This document shows positions 3,335 to 51,529 of a DNA stretch of 64,000 nt, piece by piece. Source of the DNA: Minisyncoccia bacterium (GTDB lineage: Bacteria > Patescibacteriota > Minisyncoccia > Moranbacterales > GCA-2747515); assembly GCA_041738235.1 (NCBI GenBank), contig JBGSQF010000013.1:63345-127344 (forward strand). Reading direction: 5' to 3'. A model generated the notes under the pieces. It saw only the letters and a program-made list of their open reading frames with translations. It was not told the origin of the DNA and made no database searches. The first letter of the stretch is position 1. Each line of letters starts with the position of its first letter. Both the position numbers and the translations under genes were made by a program.

Positions 3335-4318
3335 ATGTTATTTTGGCAATCACTCAAAAGGAGCGTGCATGATCCTGAGTTTTATCGGGAAGTTTCAAAA
3401 CAGTCATTTTCTCAAGGATTTTCGTTCTTTATAAGATATATTCTGTTGCTTTCGGCAATGGTCTCATTGGTCATATTGACGTATTTAGGGATATTCCTTT
3501 TTGGTGGAAAGTTTGATGAAATGATGCGTGATGCTAAGTCATTTTACCCGGACGATCTAGTTGTAACGATCGTGAATGGAAAGATCTCGATCAACCAGGA
3601 GCAACCGTATGCTATTCCTTTGCCAGTGAGCGGAAATATAAAGGACAAAGAGGGTGATTTGAATTACCTAGCAGTTATCGATACGGAGTACCCGATCACG
3701 TTGGAGGCGCTTAAGGAGTACAAGACGGTAACGTTAGTAGGCGAGAGTAGTATCGGATTTCGAGATGACTCCGGAACGCTGAAGATCTATGAAATTCCGA
3801 AAGAAGTGAATATGGTGATCGATCGTTCTTGGGTTGACGGAACTGTTGATAAGGGTATAGGAGCTATTAAGAAAGTGGGTTTTGGAGTTGCTTTTGTAGG
3901 TGTTCCTCTCGCGATCTTTATAGGATTTACTATCGGGGTGATGATGTACCTGATATTTGCCGCACTTATCGTGTGGATTATCGCGCGGGTCAACAATCTT
4001 TCGTATAGTTACAAACAGTCCTATGTCGCGAGTATGTATCTTATTACGGTGCCACAGGCTCTCTCCGTCGTTTTCTTTTGGTTGGCGATAATCATTCCTT
4101 ATTTCCGAACGATCATTTTTATTGTATTGGCGATCCTGAATCTTAAAAAGGATGATCATCAATCAGCGGTAATGGGTCAGCAGCAGGATGGAACACAAAA
4201 CGTGGTAAGTAATACATCCCCGTTTTCTGAAGTTAGGACGGACCTTCCGAATACTCTACCGGAAAAGAACACTGATCGACCAGATGGATCTAAAGAACTT
4301 GAAAAGGAGAAGGAATAA
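3335..4318 (+). CDS. Integral membrane protein, hypothetical
   Basis: Multiple hydrophobic helices and a polar low-complexity C-terminal tail; a GGGGAGG RBS-like element lies upstream. Confidence 0.55.
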   Translation: MLFWQSLKRSVHDPEFYREVSKQSFSQGFSFFIRYILLLSAMVSLVILTYLGIFLFGGKFDEMMRDAKSFYPDDLVVTIVNGKISINQEQPYAIPLPVSGNIKDKEGDLNYLAVIDTEYPITLEALKEYKTVTLVGESSIGFRDDSGTLKIYEIPKEVNMVIDRSWVDGTVDKGIGAIKKVGFGVAFVGVPLAIFIGFTIGVMMYLIFAALIVWIIARVNNLSYSYKQSYVASMYLITVPQALSVVFFWLAIIIPYFRTIIFIVLAILNLKKDDHQSAVMGQQQDGTQNVVSNTSPFSEVRTDLPNTLPEKNTDRPDGSKELEKEKE

Positions 4319-12076: not shown

Positions 12077-12511
12077 ATGTGTATGACCAAGGGTAATGAC
12101 ATTATTCAGGTAGGCGCGGGTGCTGTTATCGTTCGGGACGGGAAGGTTCTTCTCGCTAAGCGAAAGGGTTCTCATGGGGAGGGTTCATACGGTACTGCTG
12201 GAGGACATGTGGAATTCGGTGAAACTCCTACCGAGACAGTCAAACGTGAAGCGATGGAAGAGTTAGGAATAGAGCTCAAGAATGTTCGTTTTGCTTCATG
12301 CACGAATATGCAGAAGTATGGAAAACACTACATTGACATTTCCTTCGTGGCAGAGATCTTGAGGGGTGAGCCGAAGATAATGGAGAGGGAGAAGATCGCA
12401 AGTGTGGATTGGTATGACCTGGAAGATCTTCCGGAACCACTCTTTGAACCTGTACGCATCGTGCTTGAAGCGATGAAGAGTGGAGAGCGGTATTTCGAGA
12501 TACATGAGTAA
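12077..12511 (+). CDS. Nudix hydrolase (MutT-like)
   Basis: Nudix box GGHVEFGETPTETVKREAMEELGI. Confidence 0.85.
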   Translation: MCMTKGNDIIQVGAGAVIVRDGKVLLAKRKGSHGEGSYGTAGGHVEFGETPTETVKREAMEELGIELKNVRFASCTNMQKYGKHYIDISFVAEILRGEPKIMEREKIASVDWYDLEDLPEPLFEPVRIVLEAMKSGERYFEIHE

Positions 12512-12965
12512 TATGGAAGAATTCAAACCAAAACCTGGACAAGTGGATTTTGCTCATATCCGGTGGGCACCGGTGATCAATTATGTCGTTCGATATAAGG
12601 GGAAGATGTTATTGGTCAGACGAAGTAAGGATCTGCACTTTTATCCGGGATATTGGAATGGAGTATCGGGATTTTTGGATGACAAAAAAAGCCTTAAGCA
12701 AAAAGTGGAGGAGGAGATTCGGGAGGAGTTGGGTATTTCTCGGACACATATCCGCAAGATCTCTTTTGGGGCGATATTTCACCAAGACGCACCCAAATAC
12801 AAAAAAACATGGATCGTCCATCCAGTGCTTGTAGAGGTGGATATCGACAAGATCCAACTGGATCGGGAGGGTGTTGAGTATCAATGGGGGACATTCTTGG
12901 AGATACAAAAGTTGAGACTTCTTCCGGGATTGAGCAGGGTTATTGATGAGATAGCTAATCTTTAA
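12504..12965 (+). CDS. Nudix hydrolase
   Basis: Nudix-fold pattern WNGVSGFLDDKKSLKQKVEEEIREELGI; the start may be ATG 12504 or 12513. Confidence 0.75.
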   Translation: MSNMEEFKPKPGQVDFAHIRWAPVINYVVRYKGKMLLVRRSKDLHFYPGYWNGVSGFLDDKKSLKQKVEEEIREELGISRTHIRKISFGAIFHQDAPKYKKTWIVHPVLVEVDIDKIQLDREGVEYQWGTFLEIQKLRLLPGLSRVIDEIANL

Positions 12966-13337: not shown

Positions 13338-13856
13338 ATGGGCATGCAAGGAAATTCAGATGTTGTTATGAACAAACTATTTAAATTGTTGTGGGCGTAC
13401 AGACCTTCGTTCGAGGTTTCGGCGGGCTGTGTACTTGTATACCGATCGTCTTTCGGTGCTCGGTATTTGCTACTTCGTTATCCTCACGGACACTGGGACT
13501 TTGTAAAGGGTCACATCGAGAGGGGTGAGAACGAGCAAGAGGCGCTACTGCGTGAGATCGAGGAAGAAACGGGCATATCGCAGGTGGCACTCTCGGTAGT
13601 GCCTGGATTTCGGAAAGACACTTTTTATTTTTATCGCGCCAAGGGATCGGAGTATGAGAAACGTGTCCGTGTTGGTAAGAGAGGCATATTTGTTTTTAAG
13701 CGGGTGATCTACTTTCTTGTCGAAACGACGCAATCAAGTGTCTCGATATCTCACGAACATACGGATTCTGAATGGCTTTCTTATGAACAGGCGTTGGGTC
13801 GACTCACCTTTGCAAGAGCAAAAGAGATATTAAAAGGTGTTGGAGAAAAAAAGTAG
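13338..13856 (+). CDS. Nudix hydrolase (Ap4A-hydrolase-like)
   Basis: Nudix box HWDFVKGHIERGENEQEALLREIEEETGI. Confidence 0.8.
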   Translation: MGMQGNSDVVMNKLFKLLWAYRPSFEVSAGCVLVYRSSFGARYLLLRYPHGHWDFVKGHIERGENEQEALLREIEEETGISQVALSVVPGFRKDTFYFYRAKGSEYEKRVRVGKRGIFVFKRVIYFLVETTQSSVSISHEHTDSEWLSYEQALGRLTFARAKEILKGVGEKK

Positions 13857-13867
13857 AAAAGGAGCAT

Positions 13868-14353
13868 ATGCCACATATTCACACAAAGGAAGGGGAGATC
13901 GACTTTACAGCAGATGTTTTTGTAGTGCATAAGAATAGAGTGCTATTACGAATGCACGACAAGTACCGCATGTGGCTTATGGTTGGGGGGCACATTGAAA
14001 CACATGAGACACCAGAAGAAACAGCTGTTCGTGAGGCAAAAGAAGAAGTGGGACTTGATATAACGATCTGGTCTGGGGATCAAGAAACGGTTCCTGAATC
14101 TTTCTTAAATTCCCAGTTTCGATCGCTTGTTCCACCTATTTTTTTGAATGTTCATAAAATATCCGATACGCATAGACATATTTCGATGATCTATTTTGCG
14201 TTTTCCGATTCAGATGTTATTATAGAGCCAGAAACGCATGAAAAAAGCGGTGGATGTGTCTGGTTTAGTAAGGAGGAACTCCTTGCGGATAAGGATATCG
14301 ATGCACCGATAAAGTACTATGCGCTTAAGGCGTTGGAAGTTTTGGGGAGTTAA
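13868..14353 (+). CDS. Nudix hydrolase
   Basis: Nudix box VGGHIETHETPEETAVREAKEEVGL. Confidence 0.85.
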   Translation: MPHIHTKEGEIDFTADVFVVHKNRVLLRMHDKYRMWLMVGGHIETHETPEETAVREAKEEVGLDITIWSGDQETVPESFLNSQFRSLVPPIFLNVHKISDTHRHISMIYFAFSDSDVIIEPETHEKSGGCVWFSKEELLADKDIDAPIKYYALKALEVLGS

Positions 14354-20969: not shown

Positions 20970-21197
20970 TCATGCTTTTTGTTCATCATTTTTTTCTGCT
21001 GTGGCTCTGTCGGCACCTGAACCGTTTTTCCAACGTCCCAGTTCTTTCTTTTGGGTTCCTTGTGCGGGTTGGGGCGTTGTCTCCGAGGCAGCGGGATAGT
21101 TCTTGCTATCGGCAGCAAGGAGTTCTGCTTCGCGTATCTCTTGTTCGATCTCTTCTCTTCTTTCGGGAGTGATATCGCCTAGTGTTTCTTTTGCCAT
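20970..21197 (-). CDS. Small acidic hypothetical protein
   Basis: AGGAGG RBS 13 nt upstream of the ATG (MAKETLGDITPERREEIEQ...); the stop faces the end of the CofE-like gene. Confidence 0.4.
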   Translation of the reverse strand: MAKETLGDITPERREEIEQEIREAELLAADSKNYPAASETTPQPAQGTQKKELGRWKNGSGADRATAEKNDEQKA

Positions 21198-21345
21198 ACG
21201 TAGCCACCTACCTCCTGGATCTGTCATAGGATTCTGTTACAGATTATAACTTTAGTATACCATATACAATATGATACAATGAAAAAGAATATCACTGAAA
21301 TGTAGAAAATTTAGCTAAAATCCTTATGACCTAGTCGATAAAGTA

Positions 21346-22251
21346 ATGTCAAAAACAGGCAAAAAAAATTCTTTTGAACAAAGGGTACTTGAGGTGGTTT
21401 CACGCATCCCTCGGGGTCTTGTTATGACCTATCGTGAGGTGGCGGAAGTCATCAATGATTCGAAGAGCGCTCGAGCAGTTGGTTCTGTACTGAGAAAGAA
21501 CAGGAATCCGGATACCCCTTGTTTTCGTGTGGTCAGATCAGATGGGTCTCCGGGACAATATAATCGGGGAAAGAAAAAAAAAGAACTTCTTTTGCGTGCA
21601 GAAGGATCATTGGACTCTCGCGGTAGGGTCCGTCGATACTTTTCTGATAGGTTTACACCGCTTTCTCAGGAAGCGGCGATGCAAAAATTACGATCGGGAG
21701 GTGTTGGGGTTATTCCAACAGACACGATCTATGGGGTGGTGTGTCGTGCAGAAGATTCGATCTCTGTCGCACGTGTTTACCAACTCAGAAAAAGGAATCC
21801 GCATAAGCCTTGCATCATTCTTATTTCTGACTATCGGGAGATGAACAACTTTGGAGTGTCGATGGATGCTGTTGACAAGCGTGTGTTTCGGGCAGTATGG
21901 CCCGGTCCAGTGAGCGTTATCGTTCCGTGTACGGAGGAACGATTTACGTATTTGCATCGTGGTGTACAAGCGCTCGCTTTTCGTTTGCCTGACGATGAAG
22001 ACCTTTTGGGGATATTGCGTGCGACAGGTCCGCTTTTGGCGCCGAGTGCTAATATTGAAGGACGGCCAGCAGCCAAAACAGTTCGGGAGGCTTATACTGT
22101 ATTTGGTCGTGGGGTAGATGTGTACATTGACGGCTTGGTTCGGGTTGGTCAATGGTCCACATTGATTGCCTGTGAAAAAGGTGGTATAGTGCTAAAACGT
22201 CCTGGAAAGGTGGATTTTTCGGATATTCAGAAGAAACTAAAGAAACTATAA
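21346..22251 (+). CDS. Fusion protein: N-terminal Ogt/MGMT-like methylated-DNA-protein-cysteine methyltransferase DNA-binding domain + C-terminal L-threonylcarbamoyladenylate synthase TsaC/YrdC domain
   Basis: N-terminal domain IPRGLVMTYREVAEVI...AVGSVLRKNRNPDTPCFRVVRSDGS is the MGMT fold with PCFR in place of PCHR. C-terminal domain GVGVIPTDTIYGVVCRAEDSISVARVYQLRKRNPHKPCIILISD is the YrdC/Sua5 signature. Confidence 0.7.
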   Translation: MSKTGKKNSFEQRVLEVVSRIPRGLVMTYREVAEVINDSKSARAVGSVLRKNRNPDTPCFRVVRSDGSPGQYNRGKKKKELLLRAEGSLDSRGRVRRYFSDRFTPLSQEAAMQKLRSGGVGVIPTDTIYGVVCRAEDSISVARVYQLRKRNPHKPCIILISDYREMNNFGVSMDAVDKRVFRAVWPGPVSVIVPCTEERFTYLHRGVQALAFRLPDDEDLLGILRATGPLLAPSANIEGRPAAKTVREAYTVFGRGVDVYIDGLVRVGQWSTLIACEKGGIVLKRPGKVDFSDIQKKLKKL

Positions 22252-22255
22252 AAAT

Positions 22256-22705
22256 ATGAAAAAAGGAGTTTTTTCTCGGGTTGGTGCTATCGTTGTTTTC
22301 TCATGTGCGGCGATCGGAACTCTTTATTCAGGAATCTTGGCGTATGGGAAATTGACGACGGGTGTATGCGTTCTTGGGTCCTCATGTCCTCTTCTTTTTG
22401 GGATACCCGTATGCGTATTTGGTTTCTTTGGATTTTTGAGCGTGCTGCTTCTGTTCGGTGCGTCATACTATACTAATCGGTGGAGATCAAAAGGGGTGGT
22501 AGTCGAACTTTTCTGGATATCTTTGGCAGGAACCTTGTTTGCGCTCTACTTTTTGATTCAGGAGCTATTTTTTATTCCGGGTGCGAGTAGTGGTTTTTCA
22601 AATATTGGTCTCGGGTACCCAAGTTGCTTATATGGTCTGGTACTATTTGGAATAATATTCTTGTTCTCTCGATATGCCCTTATACATTCGGAAGATAATC
22701 TGTAA
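22256..22705 (+). CDS. VKOR-like (vitamin K epoxide reductase family) membrane protein with a degenerate CxxC
   Basis: The loop GVCVLGSSCPLLFGIPVCVFG matches the VKOR Cys-pair / FGIPxA motif. The usual TM4 CxxC is reduced to a single Cys (YPSCLYG). Confidence 0.4.
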   Translation: MKKGVFSRVGAIVVFSCAAIGTLYSGILAYGKLTTGVCVLGSSCPLLFGIPVCVFGFFGFLSVLLLFGASYYTNRWRSKGVVVELFWISLAGTLFALYFLIQELFFIPGASSGFSNIGLGYPSCLYGLVLFGIIFLFSRYALIHSEDNL

Positions 22706-22716
22706 CAAATACTGCT

Positions 22717-24126
22717 ATGAAGTTTCGAACAATAACTCAACTGGCCAAAGAGAAGGGTGCGCAGATTCGATTTCATGAAGGGAACAATGTACACCGTTTA
22801 ACGACAGAGAAATCGGGAGATATTTTGGATATTGCAGTTCCCAAAAAAGAGGAACGTACTCGATGGAAGATGATGATGCTAGCAAGAACGATCGTAACGG
22901 TCGCTCGCCGATATGAGATAGTTAAGCTTATTCTTGTTTGGAAGGATTTCGTAGCGCTTTTTGAGGAGGAGGGGTATGACGCACAAGATCTTTTGGAGGC
23001 CTTCGTGGTCAATGCCGATATGGCGAACTATCAGTACAATCGTTACAAAGAAAAGCCGAAGGAGGGGTGGAAGATCGTGGAAGATATAGCAATACTTGTG
23101 TCATCTCAAGGACGAACAAAATTGGAAGAAACTCTCGGGCATGCAAAAAAAGTGGCTGAGGCGGTGACCATCTCGCGTGATCTCTCCAATACACCTGGTG
23201 GACACATGACGCCTGATATTTTGGCACAATCGATCAAGCGAATTATTCACGGATTACCCATACGATATAAAGTTCTCAAGGATAAGGAAATGAAACGCCT
23301 TGGTATGGGTGGAGTATTGGGTGTGGCTCAGGGTTCAAAGGCTCGTCCACGATTTATTGTTTTAGAGTACACTGGGTCCAAGAATTTGAAAGAAAAGCCG
23401 GTGGTACTTGTGGGAAAGGGTGTAACATACGATTCTGGCGGAATTGATATCAAGCCTTCCCCATATGGTCTTGAGATGAATATGGATATGTCTGGTGGGG
23501 CGGCCGTAGCTGCTTCGCTTGTAGCGCTGGCAAGGATGAAAGTAAAGAAGAATATCGTGGTGTTGATCCCTGCTGTAGAAAATATGCCTTCCGGGGAGAG
23601 CTATCGTCCGGGAGATGTGCTCAAATCCCTTTCCGGGAAAACGATCGAAGTGCTGAATACGGATGCAGAAGGAAGGATTATCTTGGCAGATGCTTTGGCA
23701 TATGCTAAGCGGTACGATCCGAAAGCCGTGATCGATGTAGCGACACTTACAGGGGCCGCGGAGGTGGCTTTGGGAAAGCGGGCTTCGGCAATATTTTCAC
23801 CCCAAGAAGATCTTTTGGAAGAGGCAAAGAAGTGTGGGGAAGAGTCAGGGGATCGTGTATGGCCCCTTCCTCTCTGGGAAGAATATGAAGGGGATGTCGC
23901 GGGTAATTTTGGAGATGTAGCTAATATGCAGACCAAGGGGTCTTGGCGTGAAGGGGGTACGATAATTGGTGCGGTATTCTTGTGGCAGTTTGCGAAGGAT
24001 CTTCGTAGGTGGTTGCACGTTGATATGGCACCTCGAATGACCCCATCGCATGACGAAATGCTCGCAAAGGGAGCAGCTGGCGCGCCAGTTCGATTTCTTA
24101 TAAGATTTGTAGAGCATTACCTCTAA
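22717..24126 (+). CDS. pepA: Leucyl aminopeptidase (M17)
   Basis: NTDAEGRIILADALAYA and VGKGVTYDSGGIDIKP signatures. Confidence 0.9.
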   Translation: MKFRTITQLAKEKGAQIRFHEGNNVHRLTTEKSGDILDIAVPKKEERTRWKMMMLARTIVTVARRYEIVKLILVWKDFVALFEEEGYDAQDLLEAFVVNADMANYQYNRYKEKPKEGWKIVEDIAILVSSQGRTKLEETLGHAKKVAEAVTISRDLSNTPGGHMTPDILAQSIKRIIHGLPIRYKVLKDKEMKRLGMGGVLGVAQGSKARPRFIVLEYTGSKNLKEKPVVLVGKGVTYDSGGIDIKPSPYGLEMNMDMSGGAAVAASLVALARMKVKKNIVVLIPAVENMPSGESYRPGDVLKSLSGKTIEVLNTDAEGRIILADALAYAKRYDPKAVIDVATLTGAAEVALGKRASAIFSPQEDLLEEAKKCGEESGDRVWPLPLWEEYEGDVAGNFGDVANMQTKGSWREGGTIIGAVFLWQFAKDLRRWLHVDMAPRMTPSHDEMLAKGAAGAPVRFLIRFVEHYL

Positions 24127-24136
24127 ACTATTTTGT

Positions 24137-24853
24137 ATGGATCAAGATCAAACACAAAATGAAGCAATCGTGCAGAGCACACCAAAGAGAGAGCCAGGAT
24201 CTCGGGAACGTCTGTTGCGTATTGCGGATGAGATGGAAAAAGGATTTCGTTTTGCGGAAACATTTGATGAAACACGTGTCGTGACGGTGTATGGAAGTGC
24301 AAGAACCAAACCTGAGGAGCAATGTTATAAAGCTGCATACGAATTAGGTAAATTGCTCGTGCAAGATGATAGCTCTATATCAGTGGTAACTGGAGGTGGT
24401 CCCGGCATCATGGAGGCAGCAAATAAGGGTGCTTTTGAGGGTGGGGGATTTTCTGTAGGATTGGGTATTCAGTTGGATCACATAGTGGAGAAACCAAATC
24501 CTTACACGACACATCGACTCGACTTTTACTATTTTTTTGCGCGAAAGGTGATCTTAGCACATATCGCACAAGGTTATGTTTTTTTCCCTGGTGGGTTTGG
24601 TACTATGGATGAGTTCTTTGAATTATCGACACTGGTAGCGACCAAGAAGATCGAGACGGTGCCAACTATTATCTTGGTCGGAAAGACCTATTGGGAAGGG
24701 TTATTTGATTGGGTTCAAAGATGTCCAATAGAAAAGTACCGCACCATATCGGAAGGTGCGCTTGATATATATACCATCACCGATGATGTTGAGGAGGCAT
24801 ATCATCTGCTTGATAAGATGCCTCTTCGTATCGGTCGTTCAGATGTTGTGTAA
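24137..24853 (+). CDS. LOG-family (TIGR00730) cytokinin-riboside-5'-monophosphate phosphoribohydrolase-like protein
   Basis: VTVYGSAR...VVTGGGPGIMEAANKGA...FPGGFGTMDEF (PGGxGTxxE motif). Confidence 0.85.
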   Translation: MDQDQTQNEAIVQSTPKREPGSRERLLRIADEMEKGFRFAETFDETRVVTVYGSARTKPEEQCYKAAYELGKLLVQDDSSISVVTGGGPGIMEAANKGAFEGGGFSVGLGIQLDHIVEKPNPYTTHRLDFYYFFARKVILAHIAQGYVFFPGGFGTMDEFFELSTLVATKKIETVPTIILVGKTYWEGLFDWVQRCPIEKYRTISEGALDIYTITDDVEEAYHLLDKMPLRIGRSDVV

Positions 24854-24886
24854 GAGGAGATTCATAATTATGCATAGGTCTATTGT

Positions 24887-25738
24887 ATGGTCTATATTGG
24901 CGCGCACGTATCGGCATCTGGAGGTGTAGATAAATCTATCCAAAATGCTCTAGAGATCGGTGCGAATGCGGTACAAATTTTTGGTTCTTCTCCAAGGCAA
25001 TGGGCTGTTCGGCAGATCCCAGAACAAGAGATAGGGGAATTCAAGCGCGCCTCTCTGCGTGCTAAGATGGGACCTACTTTTTTTCATGCCCCGTATCTTA
25101 TCAATCTAGGTAGTCCAAATGTAGAACTTCGAAAGAAATCGGAGAAAATGCTTTTAGAAAACTATCAAAATGCGGTAAATCTTGGTATTGCGGGGGTAAT
25201 ATTTCACATCGGTTCACGAAAAGAACTTCCTTGGGAGGAGGCAAAAGGATACGTAGTAGGATCACTCAGGCAGATATTGAAGACCGTTCCTGGGAATACG
25301 TTCCTGGCGATAGAAAATAGTGCCGGGGGAGGAAATACGGTCGGATCCACGTTGGAAGAGGTGGGAGAGGTCGTGCAGTTAGTAGATGATGAACGCCTTG
25401 CTTTTTGTTATGATACAGCGCACGGATTTGAGTCTGGTATGATCGAGCAATACACTCCAGGATCAGTGAAGGATCTCTTTTCTCGGATAGAGTATATCGT
25501 GGGAAAAGGGCGTCTTGTTGCGGTACACCTCAATGATAGTAAAACCCCATACAAGTCCAATAGCGATCGACATGAGAATATTGGAGAGGGACACATTGGT
25601 AGAGAGGGAATCAAAGCATTTGTTCAGAATAAAGATTTTCAAAAGGTTCCTTGGTATTTGGAGGTTCCCGGATTTGATGGCACAGGACCGGATAAAAAAA
25701 ATATCGAAAGAGTAAAGAATCTCATGATGGGTAAATAA
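24887..25738 (+). CDS. nfo: Endonuclease IV (AP endonuclease family 2)
   Basis: IGAHVS, HAPYLINLGSP, AIENSAGGGN, DTAHGFESG, HLNDSK: the metal-binding signature of Nfo. Confidence 0.9.
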   Translation: MVYIGAHVSASGGVDKSIQNALEIGANAVQIFGSSPRQWAVRQIPEQEIGEFKRASLRAKMGPTFFHAPYLINLGSPNVELRKKSEKMLLENYQNAVNLGIAGVIFHIGSRKELPWEEAKGYVVGSLRQILKTVPGNTFLAIENSAGGGNTVGSTLEEVGEVVQLVDDERLAFCYDTAHGFESGMIEQYTPGSVKDLFSRIEYIVGKGRLVAVHLNDSKTPYKSNSDRHENIGEGHIGREGIKAFVQNKDFQKVPWYLEVPGFDGTGPDKKNIERVKNLMMGK

Positions 25739-26391: not shown

Positions 26392-26465
26392 AGCGGGGTA
26401 GAGCAGCCAGGCAGCTCGTCGGGCTCATAACCCGGAGGTCGTGGGTTCGAATCCCACCCCCGCAA
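26392..26465 (+). tRNA. Initiator tRNA-Met (CAU)
   Basis: Cloverleaf AGCGGGG-TA-GAGC...GCTC; anticodon arm with three G-C pairs (GGG-CTCATAA-CCC); A1:A72 mismatch; T-arm GTGGG-TTCGAAT-CCCAC; very close to E. coli tRNA-fMet; no encoded CCA. Confidence 0.8.
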
Positions 26466-26512
26466 CAAAATGTGACAATTAAAGAGGTTGGGTGAAGAAC
26501 CTGTTTGTTCTT

Positions 26513-26586
26513 GGCAGGGTAGCTCAGTTGGTTAGAGCGTGGGACTCATAAGCCCGAGGTCGAGAGTTCGAATCTCTCCCCTGCTA
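26513..26586 (+). tRNA. tRNA with CAU anticodon (elongator Met or lysidine-modified Ile2)
   Basis: GGCAGGG-TA-GCTC-AGTTGGTTA-GAGC, anticodon loop CTCATAA, T-arm GAGAG-TTCGAAT-CTCTC, acceptor CCCTGCT; one A31:G39 mismatch in the anticodon stem. Confidence 0.75.
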
Positions 26587-26609
26587 CAAAGAGGAGAGAG
26601 GATATAATA

Positions 26610-27026
26610 GTGATTTACGACTCAAGTATGTCTTTTGACAAGGGACCAAGAAAAGAAACGGTAAGTGGACTGTATGTACACGGTCTCGCCGACAGTAGAA
26701 AGTCTGTGGGTGCTGAGGATCGGGAAGGAAAAAAGCTTTCCGTAACGGAGCAGGTACTGGCCTCATTTAGAAATAATGAGCTCCCATCATTGGATGGAGC
26801 CCGGGTTGCTGTTGATCACATGTTGGCTCATTCCGGTATTAGTGAGAAGGACTTTTTGGAGTTTGCTACGACACATCAGGAGTCGATGAAAGAGTTTATA
26901 GAACAAGCATTACGGATCATGAGTCGAATTGATGGAGGAAGAGAGAAGGATTCCAAGGTGTTATTTGAACGATTGAGAAATACGATACCCTCCTCTGAGG
27001 AAGTTGATTATAGAAAGGCAGCCTAG
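26610..27026 (+). CDS. Hypothetical soluble protein
   Basis: GTG start preceded by a strong GAGGAGAGAGGA RBS; no recognisable motif. Confidence 0.5.
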   Translation: MIYDSSMSFDKGPRKETVSGLYVHGLADSRKSVGAEDREGKKLSVTEQVLASFRNNELPSLDGARVAVDHMLAHSGISEKDFLEFATTHQESMKEFIEQALRIMSRIDGGREKDSKVLFERLRNTIPSSEEVDYRKAA

Positions 27027-27048
27027 AATAGAAGTGTTTTGAAAATTT

Positions 27049-27125
27049 GGACCGGTAGCTCAGTTGGTTACCCGCCCGTACCGAACGGACTCGGTACGTT
27101 CGGGCGGGGATCATCGCCCTGTCAC
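27049..27125 (+). pseudogene. Degenerate partial copy of tRNA-Asp (5' half to the anticodon loop) with a 39-nt hairpin replacing part of the D-arm
   Basis: GGACCGGTAGCTCAGTTGGTTA is identical to positions 1-22 of the tRNA-Asp at 27379. A perfect hairpin follows at 27071-27109 (CCCGCCCG...CGGGCGGG). Then ATCGCCCTGTCAC matches the anticodon-stem 5' strand plus loop, and the copy ends there. Confidence 0.6.
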
Positions 27126-27136
27126 TGTATGGTTCT

Positions 27137-27373
27137 ATGTACACCGTTTATGTTTTGCAAGATGATTCTGGAAAGTTATACAAAGGTATGACGAGTGATC
27201 TGAACAGAAGATTTGCAGAACATAGCCGGGGTAAAACGAAGACAACGAGCAAAATGAAAGATATTTTCGTTGTCTACACTGAAGAATACGTTACTCGGCT
27301 GGAAGCGCGCGCAAGAGAGAAATACCTCAAGACAGCTGCAGGTAGAAGATTTTTGAAGAAAAAGTTGCAATAA
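27137..27373 (+). CDS. GIY-YIG nuclease family protein (small UPF0213/YhbQ-like)
   Basis: YTVYVLQDDSGKLYKGMTSDLNRRFAEH is the GIY-YIG catalytic motif (GIY...YxG...R...E...H/N). The ORF fills the 253-bp gap between the partial and intact tRNA-Asp copies. Confidence 0.8.
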   Translation: MYTVYVLQDDSGKLYKGMTSDLNRRFAEHSRGKTKTTSKMKDIFVVYTEEYVTRLEARAREKYLKTAAGRRFLKKKLQ

Positions 27374-27378
27374 TATTT

Positions 27379-27452
27379 GGACCGGTAGCTCAGTTGGTTA
27401 GAGCATCGCCCTGTCACGGCGAGGGTCGCGAGTTCGAGTCTCGTCCGGTCCG
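27379..27452 (+). tRNA. tRNA-Asp (GUC)
   Basis: GGACCGG-TA-GCTC-AGTTGGTTA-GAGC-A-TCGCC-CTGTCAC-GGCGA-GGGTC-GCGAG-TTCGAGT-CTCGT-CCGGTCC-G; canonical cloverleaf; no encoded CCA. Confidence 0.9.
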
Positions 27453-27462
27453 CAGAAATCTA

Positions 27463-41798: not shown

Positions 41799-42788
41799 AT
41801 GAAGACCGTGATGATATTTGGGACATTCGATGGTTTGCATGAGGGGCATCGATCACTTTTTCGCCAGGCTAAGAAGCATGGCGATTTTTTGATCGTTGTA
41901 GTGGCGCGTGACACGACCGTGATGTTGGTGAAAAAACGCTTGCCTAAATATCGTGAGTGCGTTCGATACGCGATGCTTTGTGGTGAAGAACACGTCGATA
42001 AAGTGGTCCTAGGTGATGAGAAGGATAAATACGCAGTTATAAGAGCTCATAATCCGGATGTAATATGTTTAGGTTATGACCAAGAGAAGTTTGTTCAGAA
42101 ATTATATGAAAAGTTTCCCGGGGAGATCGTTCGACTTCTGCCATTTCAACCAGAAAAGTATAAATCTTCTAAGATAGAAAAAGAGGATCATATTTACCCA
42201 GCAGCTAAGAATGTTTTGCGCAGACATCTTTTTATCAAAAGAACGGAAATCCCCTTGGAAAAGAGAAAGAGAGATTCTCAATCGATAGTCTCTGCACTTT
42301 TCTCTCTTTCAGAAATACGGCGAGCTTCTGTCATTGCTCTTTATTATCCTATGCGGGCTGAAGTAGATATACGCGAACTTTTATGGAAATTCTTAGAAGA
42401 GGAAAAAATAGTCCTTGTTCCTTTGATGAAAAGAGGGGATCAAATGATCTTTTCTCAAATTACGAAGGAAACAGAATTTAGAAAAGGCGAGGGTGGATTT
42501 AGAGTTCCGCTTCACGTATCTCCGTACAATGGCGATATAGATGTCTGTATTGTTCCATGTGTGGGCTTTGACGCACGGGGAAATCGTCTGGGTCGTGGAA
42601 AGGGATGTTATGATCGTATCTCAGCGGAGTATCTTAGGACTTTTTTTGTAGGAGTTGCTTTTGAGGAGCAGGAGGTTTTGTGTCTTCCAGTTGAGTCTCA
42701 TGACAAGCGAATGGATGTTCTTTGTACTGCAGAAAAGGGTTTGCCTGTGATACGAAGATATGATACTCTCGTTACGGAAAACGCTTAA
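41799..42788 (+). CDS. Fusion: cytidylyltransferase-like nucleotidyltransferase (HxGH, FAD-synthetase/RibL-like) + 5-formyltetrahydrofolate cyclo-ligase
   Basis: N-terminal IFGTFDGLHEGH...IVVVARD (HxGH nucleotidyltransferase). C-terminal YYPMRAEVD...PCVGFDARGNRLGRGKGCYDR (5-FTHF cyclo-ligase GxGxGYYD motif). Confidence 0.7.
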   Translation: MKTVMIFGTFDGLHEGHRSLFRQAKKHGDFLIVVVARDTTVMLVKKRLPKYRECVRYAMLCGEEHVDKVVLGDEKDKYAVIRAHNPDVICLGYDQEKFVQKLYEKFPGEIVRLLPFQPEKYKSSKIEKEDHIYPAAKNVLRRHLFIKRTEIPLEKRKRDSQSIVSALFSLSEIRRASVIALYYPMRAEVDIRELLWKFLEEEKIVLVPLMKRGDQMIFSQITKETEFRKGEGGFRVPLHVSPYNGDIDVCIVPCVGFDARGNRLGRGKGCYDRISAEYLRTFFVGVAFEEQEVLCLPVESHDKRMDVLCTAEKGLPVIRRYDTLVTENA

Positions 42789-43254: not shown

Positions 43255-43310
43255 TATCTGGAGAGTCTAGTCATGAACACCCATCGCACATGTGTGCACA
43301 AATAAAAAAA

Positions 43311-44018
43311 ATGAGTGGTCAGATATACAAAGAGCTCAAATTGTATGCAGATCCTACGAGGGCCAAACATTCATTGAGATTTTTTAAGTGTGGAAAGGGA
43401 CAGTATGGGGAAGGAGACCTTTTTCTGGGAATAACAGTGCCCCAGTTACGAAAAACTGCGAAGAAATATTTTCAAGACATTTCATTTGAACCTGTTCAGG
43501 AGCTTTTGGAGAGTGTATACCACGAACATCGCTTGTTAGGTCTACTCTTTTTGGTGTACAAGTTTGATAGATCTACTGAAAAAGAGCAGGCGAAAATATA
43601 CCGTTTTTATAAAAAGAACATTCGTCGGATCAATAACTGGGACCTAGTCGATGTTACCACACCTCGCATTGTAGGAGAGTATCTTTGGGATCACGTTGGT
43701 GAACGAAAGATCTTGAAGCGATGGACCACTGCGAAGAATATGTGGGAAAGGCGTATTGCAGTACTCGCTACATTCGCTTTCATAAAAAGAGGAAGATTCC
43801 AGGAGTCCTTCGATATCGCCAAGGCACTTTTACAAGATCCGGAGGATCTTTTGCACAAAGCCGTTGGTTGGATGTTACGAGAAGTGGGCAAGCGTGATCA
43901 GGTCGTATTGGAAAAGTTTCTTCTTGAGCGTGGGGCGCATATGCCACGCACAACACTTCGATATGCTATTGAGAGGTTTGATGAGAAGAAGAGAAAAGAA
44001 TATCTTTTATTAAAATAA
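43311..44018 (+). CDS. DNA alkylation repair protein (AlkD/AlkC-like HEAT-repeat glycosylase family)
   Basis: VPQLRKTAKKY...NWDLVDV...PRIVGEYL...WERRIAVLATFAFIKRG...HKAVGWMLREVGKRD matches the DNA_alkylation family. Confidence 0.7.
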   Translation: MSGQIYKELKLYADPTRAKHSLRFFKCGKGQYGEGDLFLGITVPQLRKTAKKYFQDISFEPVQELLESVYHEHRLLGLLFLVYKFDRSTEKEQAKIYRFYKKNIRRINNWDLVDVTTPRIVGEYLWDHVGERKILKRWTTAKNMWERRIAVLATFAFIKRGRFQESFDIAKALLQDPEDLLHKAVGWMLREVGKRDQVVLEKFLLERGAHMPRTTLRYAIERFDEKKRKEYLLLK

Positions 44019-44029
44019 AAATACTTACC

Positions 44030-44758
44030 ATGAAAGGAAAAAATGGTGAACAAGACGGGATAAAGATATTCTTGTCAACTCGAGATGACGGGAATATGGC
44101 TTTTTATGCAGGGGAAGAGCGTGGGAGGTCTTTTGAGAATAGAGAATGTTTTTTTCAAGAGAGGGGCCTTGATCTTTCTCGGGCTGTTTTCTTGCAGCAA
44201 ACGCATAGTGATCATATTTTGGTGGTTGGAAAAGAAAATGCTGGACGAGGGGTGAGTAGTCATGAAGACGCCTTGTCAGACGCGGACGCACTTGTAACTG
44301 ATGTTCCTGGAATCACCTTGTGTGTTCAGGTGGCTGATTGCGCGCCTATATTGCTTTTTGATCCGGTCCGTCGAGTGATCGCCGCGGTGCATTCCGGGTG
44401 GCGAGGCACCTTACAGAACATTGTAGGAAAAACTGTCTTGAAAATGGCTGACACTTTTGGCTCGGAGGCAAAGGATATACAAGTGTGGATCGGTCCAGCC
44501 ATAGAAGGTTCTTGTTTTGTTGTCGACGATCGGATCGCTGATCCAGTGAAAGCGAATGGTTTTTTAGGGCTTTCTGATGATGAAACGCATTGGGACATTT
44601 CGGTAGCTTGTAGGGGGCAACTTGTTCGGGAGGGCGTCAGAGAAGAGAACATCGATATGTCAGGGGAGTGTACGGTATGTAACAAAGAACAATATTTTTC
44701 TTATAAAAGGGAAGGAGATCATGCGGGTAGAATGTTGGGGGGTATCGTGCTTATTTAG
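44030..44758 (+). CDS. pgeF: PgeF/YfiH (DUF152, LACC1-like) purine-nucleoside-processing / peptidoglycan-editing factor
   Basis: LQQTHSDHILVV...ADALVTDVPGITLCVQVADCAPILLFDP...AAVHSGWRGT, with the conserved C/H metal-site residues. Confidence 0.85.
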   Translation: MKGKNGEQDGIKIFLSTRDDGNMAFYAGEERGRSFENRECFFQERGLDLSRAVFLQQTHSDHILVVGKENAGRGVSSHEDALSDADALVTDVPGITLCVQVADCAPILLFDPVRRVIAAVHSGWRGTLQNIVGKTVLKMADTFGSEAKDIQVWIGPAIEGSCFVVDDRIADPVKANGFLGLSDDETHWDISVACRGQLVREGVREENIDMSGECTVCNKEQYFSYKREGDHAGRMLGGIVLI

Positions 44759-44858: not shown

Positions 44859-45362
44859 ATGAAACTTCTTCAAGAACTTCGAGAATCAGATCTGGGAATA
44901 GAGCCGAAAGAAAGCGCGGGTTTTTTGGAGGTGCGTAATGCGGTGCGAGCAGTGGTGTTTGATGCGGAGGGTCGGGTGGGCGTGGCGCATGTGGCCGATG
45001 GAAATTATTGGAAGATCCCCGGAGGGGGCGTTGAGAAGGGAGAGAGTTTTGTGCAAGCCCTGGAAAGAGAGCTTATGGAGGAGGCGGGAGTGAAGGCAAC
45101 CGTGGAGGGAGAGATCGGGGTAATCATCGAGCATCGCGATCAATGGAAGCAACTGCAAATTTCATACTGCTATCGGGCGCGTGTAGAGGGGGAAAAGCAG
45201 GTCCCAAAATTTGATGAGACAGAACGGGAAGAAGGATTTTCGTTTCACTGGTTACCCTACGGGGAAGCACTGCAAAAGTTTCGAGGAAACACCTCGCTAA
45301 CCTATGAATCACAATTTATGCAAACGCGGGATGGGATCTTTTTAAAGAAGGTCCCTATATAG
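44859..45362 (+). CDS. Nudix hydrolase
   Basis: Nudix box GGGVEKGESFVQALERELMEEAGV. Confidence 0.8.
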   Translation: MKLLQELRESDLGIEPKESAGFLEVRNAVRAVVFDAEGRVGVAHVADGNYWKIPGGGVEKGESFVQALERELMEEAGVKATVEGEIGVIIEHRDQWKQLQISYCYRARVEGEKQVPKFDETEREEGFSFHWLPYGEALQKFRGNTSLTYESQFMQTRDGIFLKKVPI

Positions 45363-47035: not shown

Positions 47036-47695
47036 ATGAAGAAAATCAAGGGAGTGTTATTTGATTTTGATGGGGTGATCCACAATACCTTTCATACGCA
47101 CCTCAGAAATATACGTGAGTTTTCAGGGTATCCTCTTACGGAACAGGAATATCGTGATATGCATAATGGGAATTTTCATGGGCATTCTCTTGATGGTTTA
47201 AAGGATATGGATTGGTTGGCCTACCGAAATTTTGTTCGAAAACATTTTGGAGAGCTTGTGATCGATCCAGAGGTGCAAAACTCTCTCAGGGAACTTGCGA
47301 GGGAACGGGAATTGTTTATTGTGAGTTCTGGTGGAGAGAGTGTTATACGAGAATATCTTGAGAGGAATGGTGTTTTGGAGATCTTTCGGACAGTGCTGGG
47401 AAGGGAATTCCATGCGTCCAAAGTGGATAAGTTCAAGTATATTTTTCAGCATTATGGATTTGGAAGTCGTGAAAGCGTGTTTGTGACGGATACTTTGGGG
47501 GATATTTTGGAGGCGAACGTTGTAGGACTCGAAACGATCGCCGTGGATTTTGGTTTTCATTCGAGAGAAAAGTTGCAAGAAGGAAATCCTTATTCGATCG
47601 TTTCTGACTTTAAAGACATAATTACTGTCGTAGAATCCTATGAATCAAGAGAGCAGACCGAGCGTTGGGATCGGAGTGATCATTCTCCGAGATAA
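47036..47695 (+). CDS. HAD-superfamily hydrolase
   Basis: Motif I VLFDFDGVI; motifs II/III present (S.G....D). Confidence 0.75.
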   Translation: MKKIKGVLFDFDGVIHNTFHTHLRNIREFSGYPLTEQEYRDMHNGNFHGHSLDGLKDMDWLAYRNFVRKHFGELVIDPEVQNSLRELARERELFIVSSGGESVIREYLERNGVLEIFRTVLGREFHASKVDKFKYIFQHYGFGSRESVFVTDTLGDILEANVVGLETIAVDFGFHSREKLQEGNPYSIVSDFKDIITVVESYESREQTERWDRSDHSPR

Positions 47696-48053
47696 TAAGG
47701 TGCTTATGGGACTTCGGAAGGGACCTCATGGGAAAGGGGCGTGGTCCTTTCCCGGAGGACACTTGGAGCATGGAGAGACCCCGGAGGAGTGTGCCGTTCG
47801 TGAAACGTTGGAGGAAACAGGCGTGCATATAGGAACGGTTCAACGGGGACCATTTACGAATGATATTTTTGAGGAAAGTGGGAAACATTACGTAACGCTC
47901 TATATGATCGCTTTTGGCATACAGGGAGATCCGAAGGTAATGGAACCGGAAAAGTGGGATCGATGGGAGTGGTTTCCGTGGGACACAATGCCTGAGAACC
48001 TATTCCTTCCGATACAGCATCTTTTGGAGTTGGGGTATCATCCAAAGAATTGA
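47640..48053 (+). CDS. Nudix hydrolase (MutT-like)
   Basis: Nudix box GGHLEHGETPEECAVRETLEETGV; it overlaps the HAD gene by 56 nt. Confidence 0.85.
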   Translation: MNQESRPSVGIGVIILRDNKVLMGLRKGPHGKGAWSFPGGHLEHGETPEECAVRETLEETGVHIGTVQRGPFTNDIFEESGKHYVTLYMIAFGIQGDPKVMEPEKWDRWEWFPWDTMPENLFLPIQHLLELGYHPKN

Positions 48054-50635: not shown

Positions 50636-50781
50636 TTCTTAAAAAAACGCATAGTGGTATATCTGCGAGAAGGAGAGAAGAGGATTCTCTCTTTCCGCGG
50701 GCATAGCCCCGAAGGTTCGTTAACAACTTCTTTCTTTTTCGTAAAATCAGAAGACCCCCAATGGGGGCAGGAGGCATAACC

Positions 50782-51528
50782 ATGGATAAAACCATGGCGA
50801 AACTCATTAGCATCATCTTCGCCGGGCTGGTCCTGGTGGGGTGTGCGACGACTCCCCCCGGGGAGACGTTGGGTTTGAAGGGCGAGGCGATGGAACGCCT
50901 TGCCAACGCGACGACGTTCGTGGCTCCGCCGCCGGTCGAAACGGCGCGGGGCTTCGAGATCGCTCTGCCACAGGATGTGGCACGAGAAATGGGGTGCAAG
51001 GAGTACCCCACGATAGACCACTCGACCGTTTCGGTGTGTCGGAAGTCATTTCGCGCGCGCCTGGACGGTTTGGAGGCGTCTGCTTACCCCTTCGGGGGGA
51101 AGTGGTATGTCTTCATTGCTGGGAAACCCTCTCGGGTGGAGATCCTCTCCGCTCGGGGGGCGAGGCATAACGCTTCGGTCGTCGGTGAGATCGGTCGCTC
51201 CCAAGTAACCGAAATCTATGCCGACATCGGCGCGACATTCCCGTCCGTTTCCGGGGTCATTCCCGGGACGGCGGGGACGCGCCTGCTTTATGGGCAGGAT
51301 GCCCTGAATGCGCTCCGCGTCCCGTCGCTTGTCGATTGGAAGGAGCGTGCGGCGGTGTGTGGGTTGGGGTCCGTGTCGTCCACTGAGCTAATCGGTGTGG
51401 CGACCGGGAACCCCTTGCCCGCAGTTGGGAAGGTTTTGCAGGGCGTTTGTGCCCTGCGCCAAGAACCCCGGCTCCTCGTGGGGTCGGGATCCGCAACACA
51501 ACCCGGGGCAACCCCCCAGGAGAAGTAA
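50782..51528 (+). CDS. Lipoprotein, hypothetical (high-GC island)
   Basis: AGGAGG RBS 7 nt upstream; signal peptide with LVGC lipobox; about 60% GC. Confidence 0.55.
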   Translation: MDKTMAKLISIIFAGLVLVGCATTPPGETLGLKGEAMERLANATTFVAPPPVETARGFEIALPQDVAREMGCKEYPTIDHSTVSVCRKSFRARLDGLEASAYPFGGKWYVFIAGKPSRVEILSARGARHNASVVGEIGRSQVTEIYADIGATFPSVSGVIPGTAGTRLLYGQDALNALRVPSLVDWKERAAVCGLGSVSSTELIGVATGNPLPAVGKVLQGVCALRQEPRLLVGSGSATQPGATPQEK

Positions 51529-51529
51529 G

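Follow-up and report, generated by a model that had tools for sequence, protein, structure and literature searches.

Recurrent fusion of a single-domain AGT/MGMT-family module to the t6A enzyme TsaC in ultra-small CPR bacteria, with a Cys-retaining, His-lacking active site in one clade

The t6A37 modification, among the few universal modifications of tRNA, begins with the synthesis of threonylcarbamoyl-AMP from threonine, bicarbonate and ATP by TsaC. O6-alkylguanine alkyltransferases (AGTs), on the other side of the protein considered here, are textbook suicide repair proteins, and their C-terminal domain, which binds DNA and carries the active site, is the Pfam family PF01035 (DNA_binding_1). 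The YrdC-fold adenylate-forming domain of TsaC tolerates appended domains, as seen in Sua5 (TsaC plus SUA5), HypF, TobZ, TsaN and the TsaC/HemK protein of M. genitalium, and the partners in known fusions of the TsaC/Sua5 family belong to the same pathway or chemistry (Kae1-like, SUA5, TcdA) or to translation (HemK), none of them to DNA repair. [quoted passage not shown] In these proteins the C-domain is paired with modules for DNA repair, chromatin or regulation, whereas the partner here is a tRNA-modification enzyme, which is not listed among AGT fusion partners in the AGT review (PMC10779285). The ATL proteins, which consist of a single domain, are defined by replacement of the active-site Cys and by a missing Asn hinge (PMC10779285). 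Neither this review nor those on t6A draw a connection between t6A and AGT or mention an MGMT-TsaC fusion, and we found no description of such a fusion in the searchable literature.

The gene under study lies in a 64 kb stretch of DNA from a Minisyncoccia bacterium, hereafter called the window. Its ORF is unbroken from the ATG at 21346 to the stop at 22249-22251, and the product of 301 aa is organized as follows.

21346..22251, + strand: MGMT-TsaC fusion gene, 301 codons plus stop (Pfam and NCBIfam matches; architecture identical in P0002-P0007)
21370..21606, + strand: single-domain AGT/MGMT-family module, residues 9-87 (PF01035, AGT and Ada-C equivalences, fold, invariant residues)
21517..21528, + strand: PCFR motif, P58 C59 F60 R61, codons 58-61, with the Cys present and the canonical His changed to Phe
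21607..21666, + strand: structured connector, residues 88-107 (SLDSRGRVRRYFSDRFTPLS), with clade-invariant residues and pLDDT ~97
21667..22248, + strand: TsaC-type (YrdC fold) domain without SUA5 domain, residues 108-301 (PF01300, TIGR00057, PDB matches, fold)
21718..21738, + strand: T125-D-T-I-Y-G-V, the N-terminal TsaC motif (PTDTxYG), from invariant residues
21787..21795, + strand: R148-K149-R150, the KxR half of the KxR/SxN tetrad, here RxR (HMMER alignment)
22045..22053, + strand: S234-A235-N236, the SxN half of the tetrad (alignment)

An earlier note on this DNA had read the product as an MGMT/Ogt-like DNA-binding domain followed by a YrdC/TsaC domain and had proposed a profile search for the two; each clears its cut-off. 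PF01035 matches residues 10-87 (E 4.1e-24, 84.7 bits vs a cut-off of 27) and PF01300 (Sua5_yciO_yrdC) residues 114-287 (E 6.1e-36, 124 bits vs 25.1), the latter match spanning positions 2-178 of the 178 in the profile. The NCBIfam models TIGR00589 (ogt superfamily domain; 71.8 vs 46.4) and TIGR00057 (L-threonylcarbamoyladenylate synthase, equivalog; 135.6 bits vs 123.2) are also above their cut-offs, and the two parts match the folds of AGT and of Sua5/TsaC, respectively. The note's further observations, namely that a PCFR variant retains the catalytic Cys and that a Sua5-type C-terminal domain is absent, are equally borne out: codons 58-61 read P-C-F-R, and the protein stops about 14 residues past the YrdC domain, lacking the SUA5 domain of about 100 residues, and is thus of the TsaC type.

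The N-terminal module contains the helix-turn-helix, Tyr29, the Arg finger R43, the Asn hinge N52, the active-site loop, Tyr72 and Glu86. When aligned to human AGT with HMMER, Y29, R43, N52, Y72 and E86 correspond to Y114, R128, N137, Y158 and E172, and P58-C59-F60-R61 to P144-C145-H146-R147, the His being the sole replacement among the aligned key residues. The active-site context reads T-P-C-F-R-V-V, compared with (I/V)PCHR(V/I)(V/I) in AGT, with Cys59, Arg61 and Glu86 kept. Foldseek superposes the N-terminal part on human AGT and Ada-C with an rmsd of 1.2-2.0 A over 79-84 residues. [quoted passage not shown] The module therefore has in common with canonical Ogt, MGMT and Ada-C the fold, the HTH, the Arg finger, the equivalents of Tyr114 and Tyr158, the Asn hinge, Pro-Cys-x-Arg and the equivalent of Glu172, but differs from them in having no N-terminal domain, PCFR in place of PCHR and a distance between Asn hinge and Cys that is one residue shorter.

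Conservation follows the same lines, for Y29, R43, N52, P58, C59, R61 and Y72 are invariant in 15 fused proteins with two junction types, while F60 and E86 are invariant across the seven members of the PCFR clade. Within this clade the mean pairwise identity is 61% for the N-module vs 54% for TsaC; the module is thus at least as conserved as its partner, which indicates that it is under selection and not decaying. PCHR is found in 136 of the 149 nearest representatives, and aromatic replacements of its His recur elsewhere (PCYR, PCFR, PCFK) with the Cys kept, a recurrence that may point to a changed chemistry instead of a loss. In AGT the Cys is activated by H146 and E172 (PMC10779285); a report on an H146 mutant of AGT was not found in the open literature.

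ATL proteins such as S. pombe Atl1 and E. coli YbaZ/eATL resemble the module in being single domains with no AGT N-domain, and in combining a crippled catalytic centre with retained lesion-binding residues. ATLs further have a C-terminal extension loop that contacts DNA, to which the extension following the module may correspond, and they pass the bound lesion on to nucleotide excision repair (UvrA/UvrC). The pattern is inverted, however: ATLs have lost the Cys (replaced by Trp or Ala) and the Asn hinge while keeping the His, whereas the fusion module has lost the His and keeps Cys59 and Asn52, both invariant, unlike what defines an ATL. Structurally, S. pombe Atl1 aligns by Foldseek over more columns than human AGT (94 vs 83) but with an rmsd of 3.8 A. 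A clade-specific active site with Cys kept and His lost, mirroring that of ATL, could show how the AGT family shifts between catalysis and pure lesion sensing.

The nearest relatives of residues 1-108 are stand-alone MGMT-family proteins of 90-130 aa with 45-60% identity, for which we found no characterized examples; given these single-domain relatives, the identification of the N-module as a truncated Ogt was rejected. These proteins contain PF01035 only and share with the fusion module a shortened Asn-hinge loop and, in many cases, the C-terminal tail 'EG-x-x-D-x-x-G-x-V', but they are free, and with few exceptions their Cys is followed by His (PCHR), in contrast to the Phe of the fusion module. 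The other fusion partners of the module are MPG (methylpurine) glycosylase, EndoV (endonuclease V), RNase HII, NUDIX and DUF1801, which are mostly enzymes of DNA repair or nucleotide sanitation.

A conserved extension of 20 residues follows the last helix of the AGT-like module and forms the connector to TsaC. Its residues S88, D90, G93, R97 and Y98 are invariant across the PCFR clade, and AF2 models it with a pLDDT of ~97 and a beta element at 97-99. The connector is equivalent to the C-terminal extension of stand-alone MGMT-family relatives, with similar tails in P0132, P0217 and P0236, and is missing from compact fusions. The AF2 model of the 301-aa protein has a mean pLDDT of 96.2 and a pTM of 0.91, the latter value being obtained also for a compact relative, and the fusion protein is predicted to be one rigid body.

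In the C-terminal domain, residues T125, D126, T127, Y129 and G130 are invariant (alignment A2). The KxR/SxN tetrad has served as an orthologue filter (PMC10321239), and HMMER aligns the KNR of S. tokodaii Sua5 to RKR, that is Lys to Arg with a Lys adjacent; the two arginines, R148 and R150, do not vary among 15 fused homologues. Since the KxR of the TsaC/Sua5 family reads RxR in the present lineage, TsaC activity is to be regarded as putative, and surveys filtered by this motif may undercount TsaC in CPR genomes. The best PDB sequence matches are Sua5/TsaC proteins, with the YciO paralogues far weaker (1e-7 vs 1e-21), and Foldseek superposes the C-terminal part on the Sua5 of S. tokodaii and P. 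abyssi with an rmsd of 2.0 A over 190-194 columns and on E. coli YrdC with a TMt of 0.81. A conserved internal start that would yield free TsaC was considered for Met112 and discarded, this residue not being conserved in the PCFR clade.

The earlier note had also called the fusion a non-standard architecture and suggested looking for it in other genomes. It does occur there: six other assemblies have it, and of the 120 homologue clusters that match best, 86 carry both Pfam domains, all apparently from Patescibacteria and mostly auto-annotated as TC-AMP synthase; hence the architecture is indeed non-standard for the literature but common in the sequence databases for Patescibacteria/CPR. The pairing is recurrent in these ultra-small CPR bacteria and apparently new to the literature. 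Junctions are of at least four types, including one with reversed domain order: compact fusions have a single helix that is both the last of AGT and the first of TsaC, while the junction type of the window has a separate TsaC helix besides the 20-residue connector. From this diversity TsaC appears to have been captured by the module at least four separate times, and the repeated evolution of a rigid fusion among CPR bacteria is Rosetta-stone evidence, of the classic kind, that the two functions are linked. PCFR is restricted to a small clade of seven clusters, most fused relatives having the canonical PCHR. Unfused members nest with the PCFR clade in the TsaC tree, and locus L001 shows identical synteny with the MGMT sequence absent; since such close syntenic relatives lack the N-domain, the module is, on comparative grounds, dispensable for TsaC. 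An unfused MGMT gene adjoining tsaC, as expected for a fusion precursor, was found in none of 80 genome loci.

The genes that accompany the fusion gene were assigned with Pfam.

22256-22705, + strand: VKOR-like membrane protein, downstream
22717-24126, + strand: M17 aminopeptidase, downstream
24137-24853, + strand: LOG-family protein, downstream
24887-25738, + strand: endonuclease IV/Nfo-type AP endonuclease, downstream
43290..44018, + strand: AlkD-like DNA alkylation repair gene (PF08713, E 7e-65)

The four downstream genes (22256..25738) are separated from the fusion gene and from each other by 4, 11, 10 and 33 nt and are likely co-transcribed with it. All relatives examined, whether their tsaC is fused or unfused, have the same gene order after it, Nfo included. 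In sister lineages the orthologue of the AlkD-like gene directly precedes tsaC or overlaps with it: the gene of the window is 57% identical to that overlapping the start of the MGMT-TsaC gene in L090, and an AlkD-like gene precedes unfused tsaC in L002/L003, this operon association being confined to one sub-lineage. HMM searches of the six-frame translation found no second tsaC, sua5 or ogt in the 64 kb window, which contains no uvr gene either; TsaD, TsaB and TsaE were absent from the approximately 60 window ORFs scanned with Pfam.

With moderate confidence, we interpret the protein as a working TsaC that carries a module for DNA-alkylation damage, with TsaC as its scaffold and not as a cargo to be delivered to tRNA. 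A single gene produces a two-domain protein that is modelled as rigid; its C-terminal two thirds are read as the TsaC of the cell, and its N-terminal third is a single-domain member of the AGT/ATL superfamily, of the type that also occurs free at 90-130 aa and is often attached to DNA-repair enzymes. The module retains the AGT residues for binding the minor groove and for flipping and holding O6-alkylguanine, together with Cys59 and Glu86, while in the PCFR clade Phe takes the place of the His that belongs to the cysteine-activating Glu-His-water-Cys relay. It would act on alkylated DNA, whether by accepting an alkyl group slowly and only once or by binding lesions in the manner of ATL proteins, and its role would be other than bringing TsaC to tRNA; TsaC would be a stable, constitutively expressed scaffold replacing the missing N-terminal domain of AGT, and the protein would be expressed from the operon ending in the AP endonuclease Nfo. 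This interpretation is supported by the AlkD-like genes that overlap the fusion gene (L090) or stand before unfused tsaC (L002/L003) and by Nfo in the operon. Against it, TsaC is not a DNA-repair enzyme and no mechanism accounts for its choice over other housekeeping proteins; moreover, its capture on at least four separate occasions hints at a link more specific than scaffolding.

The alternatives differ in what they make of the module. An ORF created by read-through of two genes, or an N-module that is a pseudodomain being lost, might be suspected from the change of a catalytic-position His to Phe and from the loss of the module in near relatives, yet both are scarcely credible: the junction is common to seven independent assemblies and the predicted structure is confident along the whole protein. 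Read-through is excluded because the six further proteins (P0002-P0007, 49-63% identical, with 66-67 residues from Cys to TDT) share architecture and spacing, the linker residues are invariant and the linker pLDDT is ~97; decay is rejected because conservation of the N-module exceeds that of TsaC in the clade. It is unlikely, though less so, that the protein is an uncoupled bifunctional enzyme in which the module, its Phe notwithstanding, still works as a usual Ogt-like suicide transferase, its fusion being a neutral product of genome streamlining. Retention of Cys, Glu, Arg finger, Tyr and Asn hinge would fit this, as would the promiscuity of the module as a fusion partner, and recurrent aromatic residues for His with the Cys kept suggest that the His is not indispensable in the subfamily. 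However, the His belongs to the relay activating the Cys (PMC10779285) and is kept in the great majority of the nearest representatives, at least four independent captures of one partner are not what neutral fusion would lead one to expect, and the surveyed loci show no unfused MGMT gene beside tsaC. We find it improbable that the module is an RNA-directed accessory domain, namely a nucleotide-flipping tRNA binder (or a device for repair of alkylated RNA) that brings TsaC to its substrate or to TsaD as the extra domain of Sua5 may do. A rigid fusion to a tRNA-modification enzyme does recur in both domain orders, Sua5 shows that an additional domain can be accommodated and put to use by TsaC, and proximity could help since TC-AMP is unstable (PMC7913687); but TsaC itself does not act on tRNA, syntenic relatives dispense with the module, and generic RNA binding needs neither the invariant residues of DNA-lesion recognition nor an acceptor Cys. 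Strict conservation of the lesion pocket and Cys, together with DNA-repair enzymes as the other partners of the module, tilts the evidence against generic targeting of TsaC to nucleic acids, one of the two functional ideas in the earlier note.

The other idea of the note, that alkylation sensing is coupled to t6A synthesis, could take the form of a switch in which irreversible alkylation of Cys59 destabilizes the module and thereby reduces TC-AMP synthesis or leads to degradation of the whole protein, throttling t6A and translation. Alkylation is known to destabilize AGTs and disrupt domain contacts, and Ada provides a precedent for alkylation signalling (PMC10779285); the two-domain models are predicted to be rigid, given the shared helix of compact fusions, one domain is not expected to unfold without consequences for its partner, and independent fusions repeatedly pick TsaC. 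Nonetheless we hold this switch to be rather unlikely, since close relatives lack the module, the change of His to Phe in the clade of the window should slow the very reaction required, and the junction of the window, with its own TsaC helix and 20-residue connector, is coupled more loosely than the compact forms. A broader version, a one-shot sensor wired to translation in which either alkylation of Cys59 or ATL-like capture of a lesion alters TsaC activity or stability, so that under alkylation stress t6A and the decoding of ANN codons fall in these minimal-genome bacteria, is something of a long shot; if true, it would parallel the Ada response at the post-translational level and explain why TsaC was captured at least four times. 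More generally, the fusion would provide a concrete way to test whether damage to DNA by alkylation is connected with the capacity for translation in organisms that have next to no machinery for regulation.

Upstream of the fusion gene there is a small minus-strand ORF (20970-21227), which is not conserved with its counterpart in L092. A promoter scan of the upstream region gave no match, and a candidate extended -10-like element, TGATACAAT, was spotted by eye at 21272-21280.

The fusion gene is an uninterrupted open reading frame that encodes two recognizable domains, with the coordinates and features listed here.

Features of the fusion gene
21346-22251, + strand: 301 codons, from the ATG at 21346 to the stop codon at 22249-22251
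Residues 10-87: DNA_binding_1 (PF01035), Pfam E 4e-24
Residues 114-287: Sua5_yciO_yrdC (PF01300), Pfam E 6e-36
21517-21528, + strand: active-site tetrapeptide P58-C59-F60-R61

PF01035 is the C-terminal DNA-binding and active-site domain of O6-alkylguanine alkyltransferases, hereafter abbreviated as AGT. In NCBIfam searches the protein scores above the cut-off of the ogt superfamily domain model and reaches 135.6 bits (cut-off 123.2) with TIGR00057, the equivalog model of L-threonylcarbamoyladenylate synthase; the AGT-like N-part joined to a YrdC/TsaC domain, as proposed in the earlier note, is thus recovered by PF01035, PF01300 and TIGR00057. Sequence searches of the PDB match the C-part to Sua5/TsaC (1e-21 to 1e-15) and the N-part to Ada-C, human AGT and archaeal OGTs (about 1e-9 to 1e-10), with no single chain spanning both parts.

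The AlphaFold2 model of the protein, based on 77 homologues, has a mean pLDDT of 96.2, and the inter-domain segment (residues 88-107) is modelled with a confidence equal to that of the domains; given a pTM of 0.91, the relative placement of the two domains is predicted with confidence. By Foldseek, residues about 108-300 superpose on Sua5/TsaC structures (rmsd about 2.0 A, 190-194 columns) and residues about 7-90 on human AGT, Ada-C and archaeal OGTs (rmsd 1.2-2.0 A, 79-84 columns). Six homologues from independent assemblies (P0002-P0007, 49-63% identity) share this architecture, the PCFR motif and the distance of 66-67 residues between the Cys and the TDT motif of TsaC, and together with the window protein, as the PCFR clade, they keep S88, D90, G93, R97 and Y98 of the linker invariant. 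Because of this shared architecture, spacing and linker, the artefactual read-through of two genes that the earlier note had envisaged is excluded.

HMMER alignment of the N-module with human AGT, from which all residue equivalences are taken, pairs Y29 with Y114, R43 with the Arg finger R128, N52 with the Asn hinge N137, P55 with P140, C59 with C145, F60 with H146, R61 with R147, Y72 with Y158 and E86 with E172. Among these known functional residues the His alone is altered, and the Cys is kept while Phe replaces the His of the canonical PCHR motif, just as had been read from the sequence. Across 15 fused proteins of two junction types, F10, I21, G24, Y29, R43, N52, P58, C59, R61, V62, G70 and Y72 are invariant. 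Members of the PCFR clade conserve the module better than TsaC (mean pairwise identity 61% vs 54%) and keep C59, F60 and E86 invariant, which rules out a decaying remnant. The Cys of AGT is activated via deprotonation by H146 and E172 (PMC10779285); since Phe cannot take the role of His in this step, Phe60 should be unable to activate the Cys, and alkyl transfer would be slowed or lost. The open literature yielded no data on H146 mutants. The 149 nearest representatives of the module carry PCHR in 136 cases, PCYR in three and PCFR in one, and a further relative has PCFK; an aromatic residue in place of His, with the Cys retained, is therefore rare but recurrent. The situation is the inverse of that in alkyltransferase-like (ATL) proteins, which have lost the Cys and the Asn hinge but kept the His, whereas the window module retains Cys and Asn hinge and lacks the His; on strict definitions it is neither an AGT nor an ATL.

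The TsaC domain covers the whole PF01300 profile, passes the equivalog cut-off and adopts the YrdC fold, with intact PTDTxYG and SxN (S234-A-N236) motifs. In the alignment R148-K149-R150 occupies the KxR position of the diagnostic tetrad, and R148 and R150 are invariant in 15 fused homologues. KxR to RxR appears to be a conservative, lineage-wide change, and we take the domain to be active on its sequence. KxR/SxN has been used as an orthologue filter in a published survey (PMC10321239), and tsaC has been found less conserved in CPR (PMC12641178); owing to their RxR, proteins of this kind may be missed by both surveys.

Both Pfam domains are present in 86 of the 120 best-scoring homologue clusters (90% identity) of a collection of 5.8 billion proteins, the named members among them being Parcubacteria, 'bacterium HR35' and similar. 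Among GTDB species representatives, 578 TsaC relatives were retrieved; 80 of these were listed, and nearly all have the titles of Patescibacteria-type MAGs. Seven of these 80 listed loci carry an MGMT (AGT) domain. The fusion is therefore frequent in metagenomes, yet confined to a minority of species. It occurs with four types of junction.

Junction types of MGMT-TsaC fusions (Cys-to-TDT spacing; clusters; motif)
Type a, compact N-terminal fusion: exactly 39 residues; 74 clusters; almost all PCHR, few PCYR, FCHR, LCHR
Type b, clade of the window protein, with an extra connector and TsaC's own first helix: 66-67 residues; 7 clusters; all PCFR
Type c, P0008: 36 residues; 1 cluster; PCHR
Type d, P0009 and P0013, order reversed (TsaC then MGMT): spacing not applicable; 2 clusters; PCHR

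In type a the AGT part ends and the TsaC part begins with one shared helix, W-x-K-A-A-x-L-L-K-E-G. Neighbour-joining trees of the TsaC and MGMT domains, built from short alignments without support values, agree in placing the compact forms in one clade and the PCFR clade, P0008 and the reversed forms apart, amid unfused TsaCs and free MGMT-family proteins. Evidence independent of the trees is given by the differing anatomy of the junctions, confirmed by a second AlphaFold2 model: compact P0010 (pTM 0.91) has one bridging helix at residues 69-81, whereas the window protein passes from helix 76-85 through a beta element to helix 108-116. Four compact fusions (P0103, P0113, P0111 and P0077) contain long low-complexity insertions of 50-90 residues, within TsaC or between the MGMT HTH and active-site loop; these may be genuine or may stem from faulty assembly or annotation.

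TsaC is not dependent on the module. Its closest unfused relative, P0017 (52% identity across TsaC), has the gene order of the window (CofE-like, tsaC, VKOR-like, M17 aminopeptidase, LOG, Nfo), and at this locus the CofE-like gene abuts tsaC, with MGMT sequence in no frame. In the TsaC tree unfused P0018 clusters with fused P0007, and its downstream genes are the same. Either the lineages of P0017 and P0018 lost the module, or there was more than one gain of it. Acylphosphatase genes (PF00708) lie at 3757-4023 of locus L004 and 5617-5901 of L008; such a gene overlaps the 5' start of unfused tsaC in a Daviesbacteria genome, and another lies directly 3' of the reversed fusion, a neighbourhood reminiscent of HypF, in which acylphosphatase and YrdC are combined.

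With residues 1-108 as query, 1.84 billion cluster representatives gave 15,023 hits. Leaving aside the representative of the clade itself, the best 149 are in their great majority free proteins of about 90-130 aa with 45-56% identity. Many free relatives share the tail EG-x-x-D-x-x-G-R-V, which forms the connector in the window protein. Longer relatives are fused to methylpurine-DNA glycosylase (in both orders), endonuclease V, RNase HII (two cases), NUDIX hydrolases (two cases), DUF1801 or, in tandem, a second copy of the module. The module is thus a mobile unit habitually joined to enzymes of DNA repair and nucleotide sanitation. Proteins with such fusions are P0155, P0173, P0175, P0182, P0202, P0226, P0259, P0268 and P0170, among which P0155 and P0175 combine the module with NUDIX in other organisms. 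The 2023 review of the AGT family covers endonuclease V, histone-like and Ada fusions and considers the AGT N-terminal domain 'not strictly required', with no mention of TsaC as a partner or of RNase HII and NUDIX fusions (PMC10779285).

A gap of 381 nt precedes the fusion gene, and the genes that follow it are closely spaced.

Genes downstream of the fusion gene
1st, gap 4 nt: VKOR-like membrane protein
2nd, gap 11 nt: M17 aminopeptidase
3rd, gap 10 nt: LOG-family protein
4th, gap 33 nt: endonuclease IV-type AP endonuclease (Nfo)

This block is kept in all relatives examined, fused and unfused. At locus L090 the beginning of the MGMT-TsaC gene is overlapped by an AlkD-like DNA-alkylation-repair gene (PF08713), which at L002/L003 lies 20 nt upstream of unfused tsaC; its orthologue in the window (57% identity, 43290-44018) is 21 kb from the fusion gene. 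In Parcubacteria the fused gene is flanked by cysS and a DUF72 gene, and its vicinity lacks repair genes; the association with repair genes is therefore real but restricted to certain lineages. The 64-kb window holds no second TsaC/Sua5 or MGMT domain, and TsaD, TsaB and TsaE are absent from its scanned ORFs. A small divergent ORF beside the fusion gene (20970-21227, - strand) has a GGAGG-like site before an internal ATG, giving a candidate product of about 74 aa, without similarity to the small divergent ORF in the same place at L092.

The reading we favour, slightly more likely than not, is a functional TsaC carrying a DNA-alkylation-damage module, which in the PCFR clade would act as a slow alkyl acceptor or an ATL-like lesion binder, with TsaC as a stable, constitutively made scaffold standing in for the AGT N-domain. 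A scaffold role by itself does not account for the capture of TsaC on at least four occasions; this is the weak point of the reading, and it leaves room for rivals. It is unlikely that the protein is a fully active bifunctional enzyme with functionally uncoupled domains. An alkylation-triggered switch acting on TsaC is rather improbable, and an RNA- or tRNA-directed role of the module a slightly longer shot still. In yeast, Sua5/KEOPS is reported to be linked to telomeres or DNA repair (PMC3695523, PMC6582355), which is a lead only. Given the homologues and the conservation of the module, we attach almost no weight to an artefact or decaying remnant.

Both domains are already known, as are fusions of the AGT C-domain as a kind, and the present fusion is abundant in databases though unremarked. 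Neither TsaC as a partner nor the recurrent rigid junctions nor the PCFR active site is described in the t6A reviews and the AGT review consulted, or turned up in full-text searches of literature outside subscription journals, an absence that does not amount to proof. The fusion offers a clean, testable Rosetta-stone link.

Other features of the window deserve mention. The AlkD-like gene has a Cu-oxidase_4 (YfiH/PgeF-type) gene immediately downstream, the pair spanning 43290-44758, and ORF 41799-42788 is another unusual fusion, of a cytidylyltransferase-like/FAD-synthetase-like N-part and a 5-formyltetrahydrofolate cyclo-ligase domain. Seven separate NUDIX hydrolase genes are present (1204-1770, 12077-12511, 12480-12965, 13338-13856, 13868-14353, 44859-45362 and 47640-48053), four of them in a single run at 12-14.4 kb. 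The region 50700-53300 has a G+C of 0.56-0.57 (about 0.44 elsewhere), no Rfam match even at E 0.01, a 255-aa ORF at 50761-51528 and a 624-aa ORF at 51395-53269 whose start resembles a signal peptide and which contains a LysM domain; the region has the look of an island gained by horizontal transfer that codes for a secreted protein binding the cell wall. Almost every credible gene lies on the + strand, and the GC skew stays positive across 1-64000; the window therefore falls inside a single replichore whose genes are strongly biased to one strand. At 26392-27453 there are two tRNA-Met(CAT) genes and a tRNA-Asp gene.
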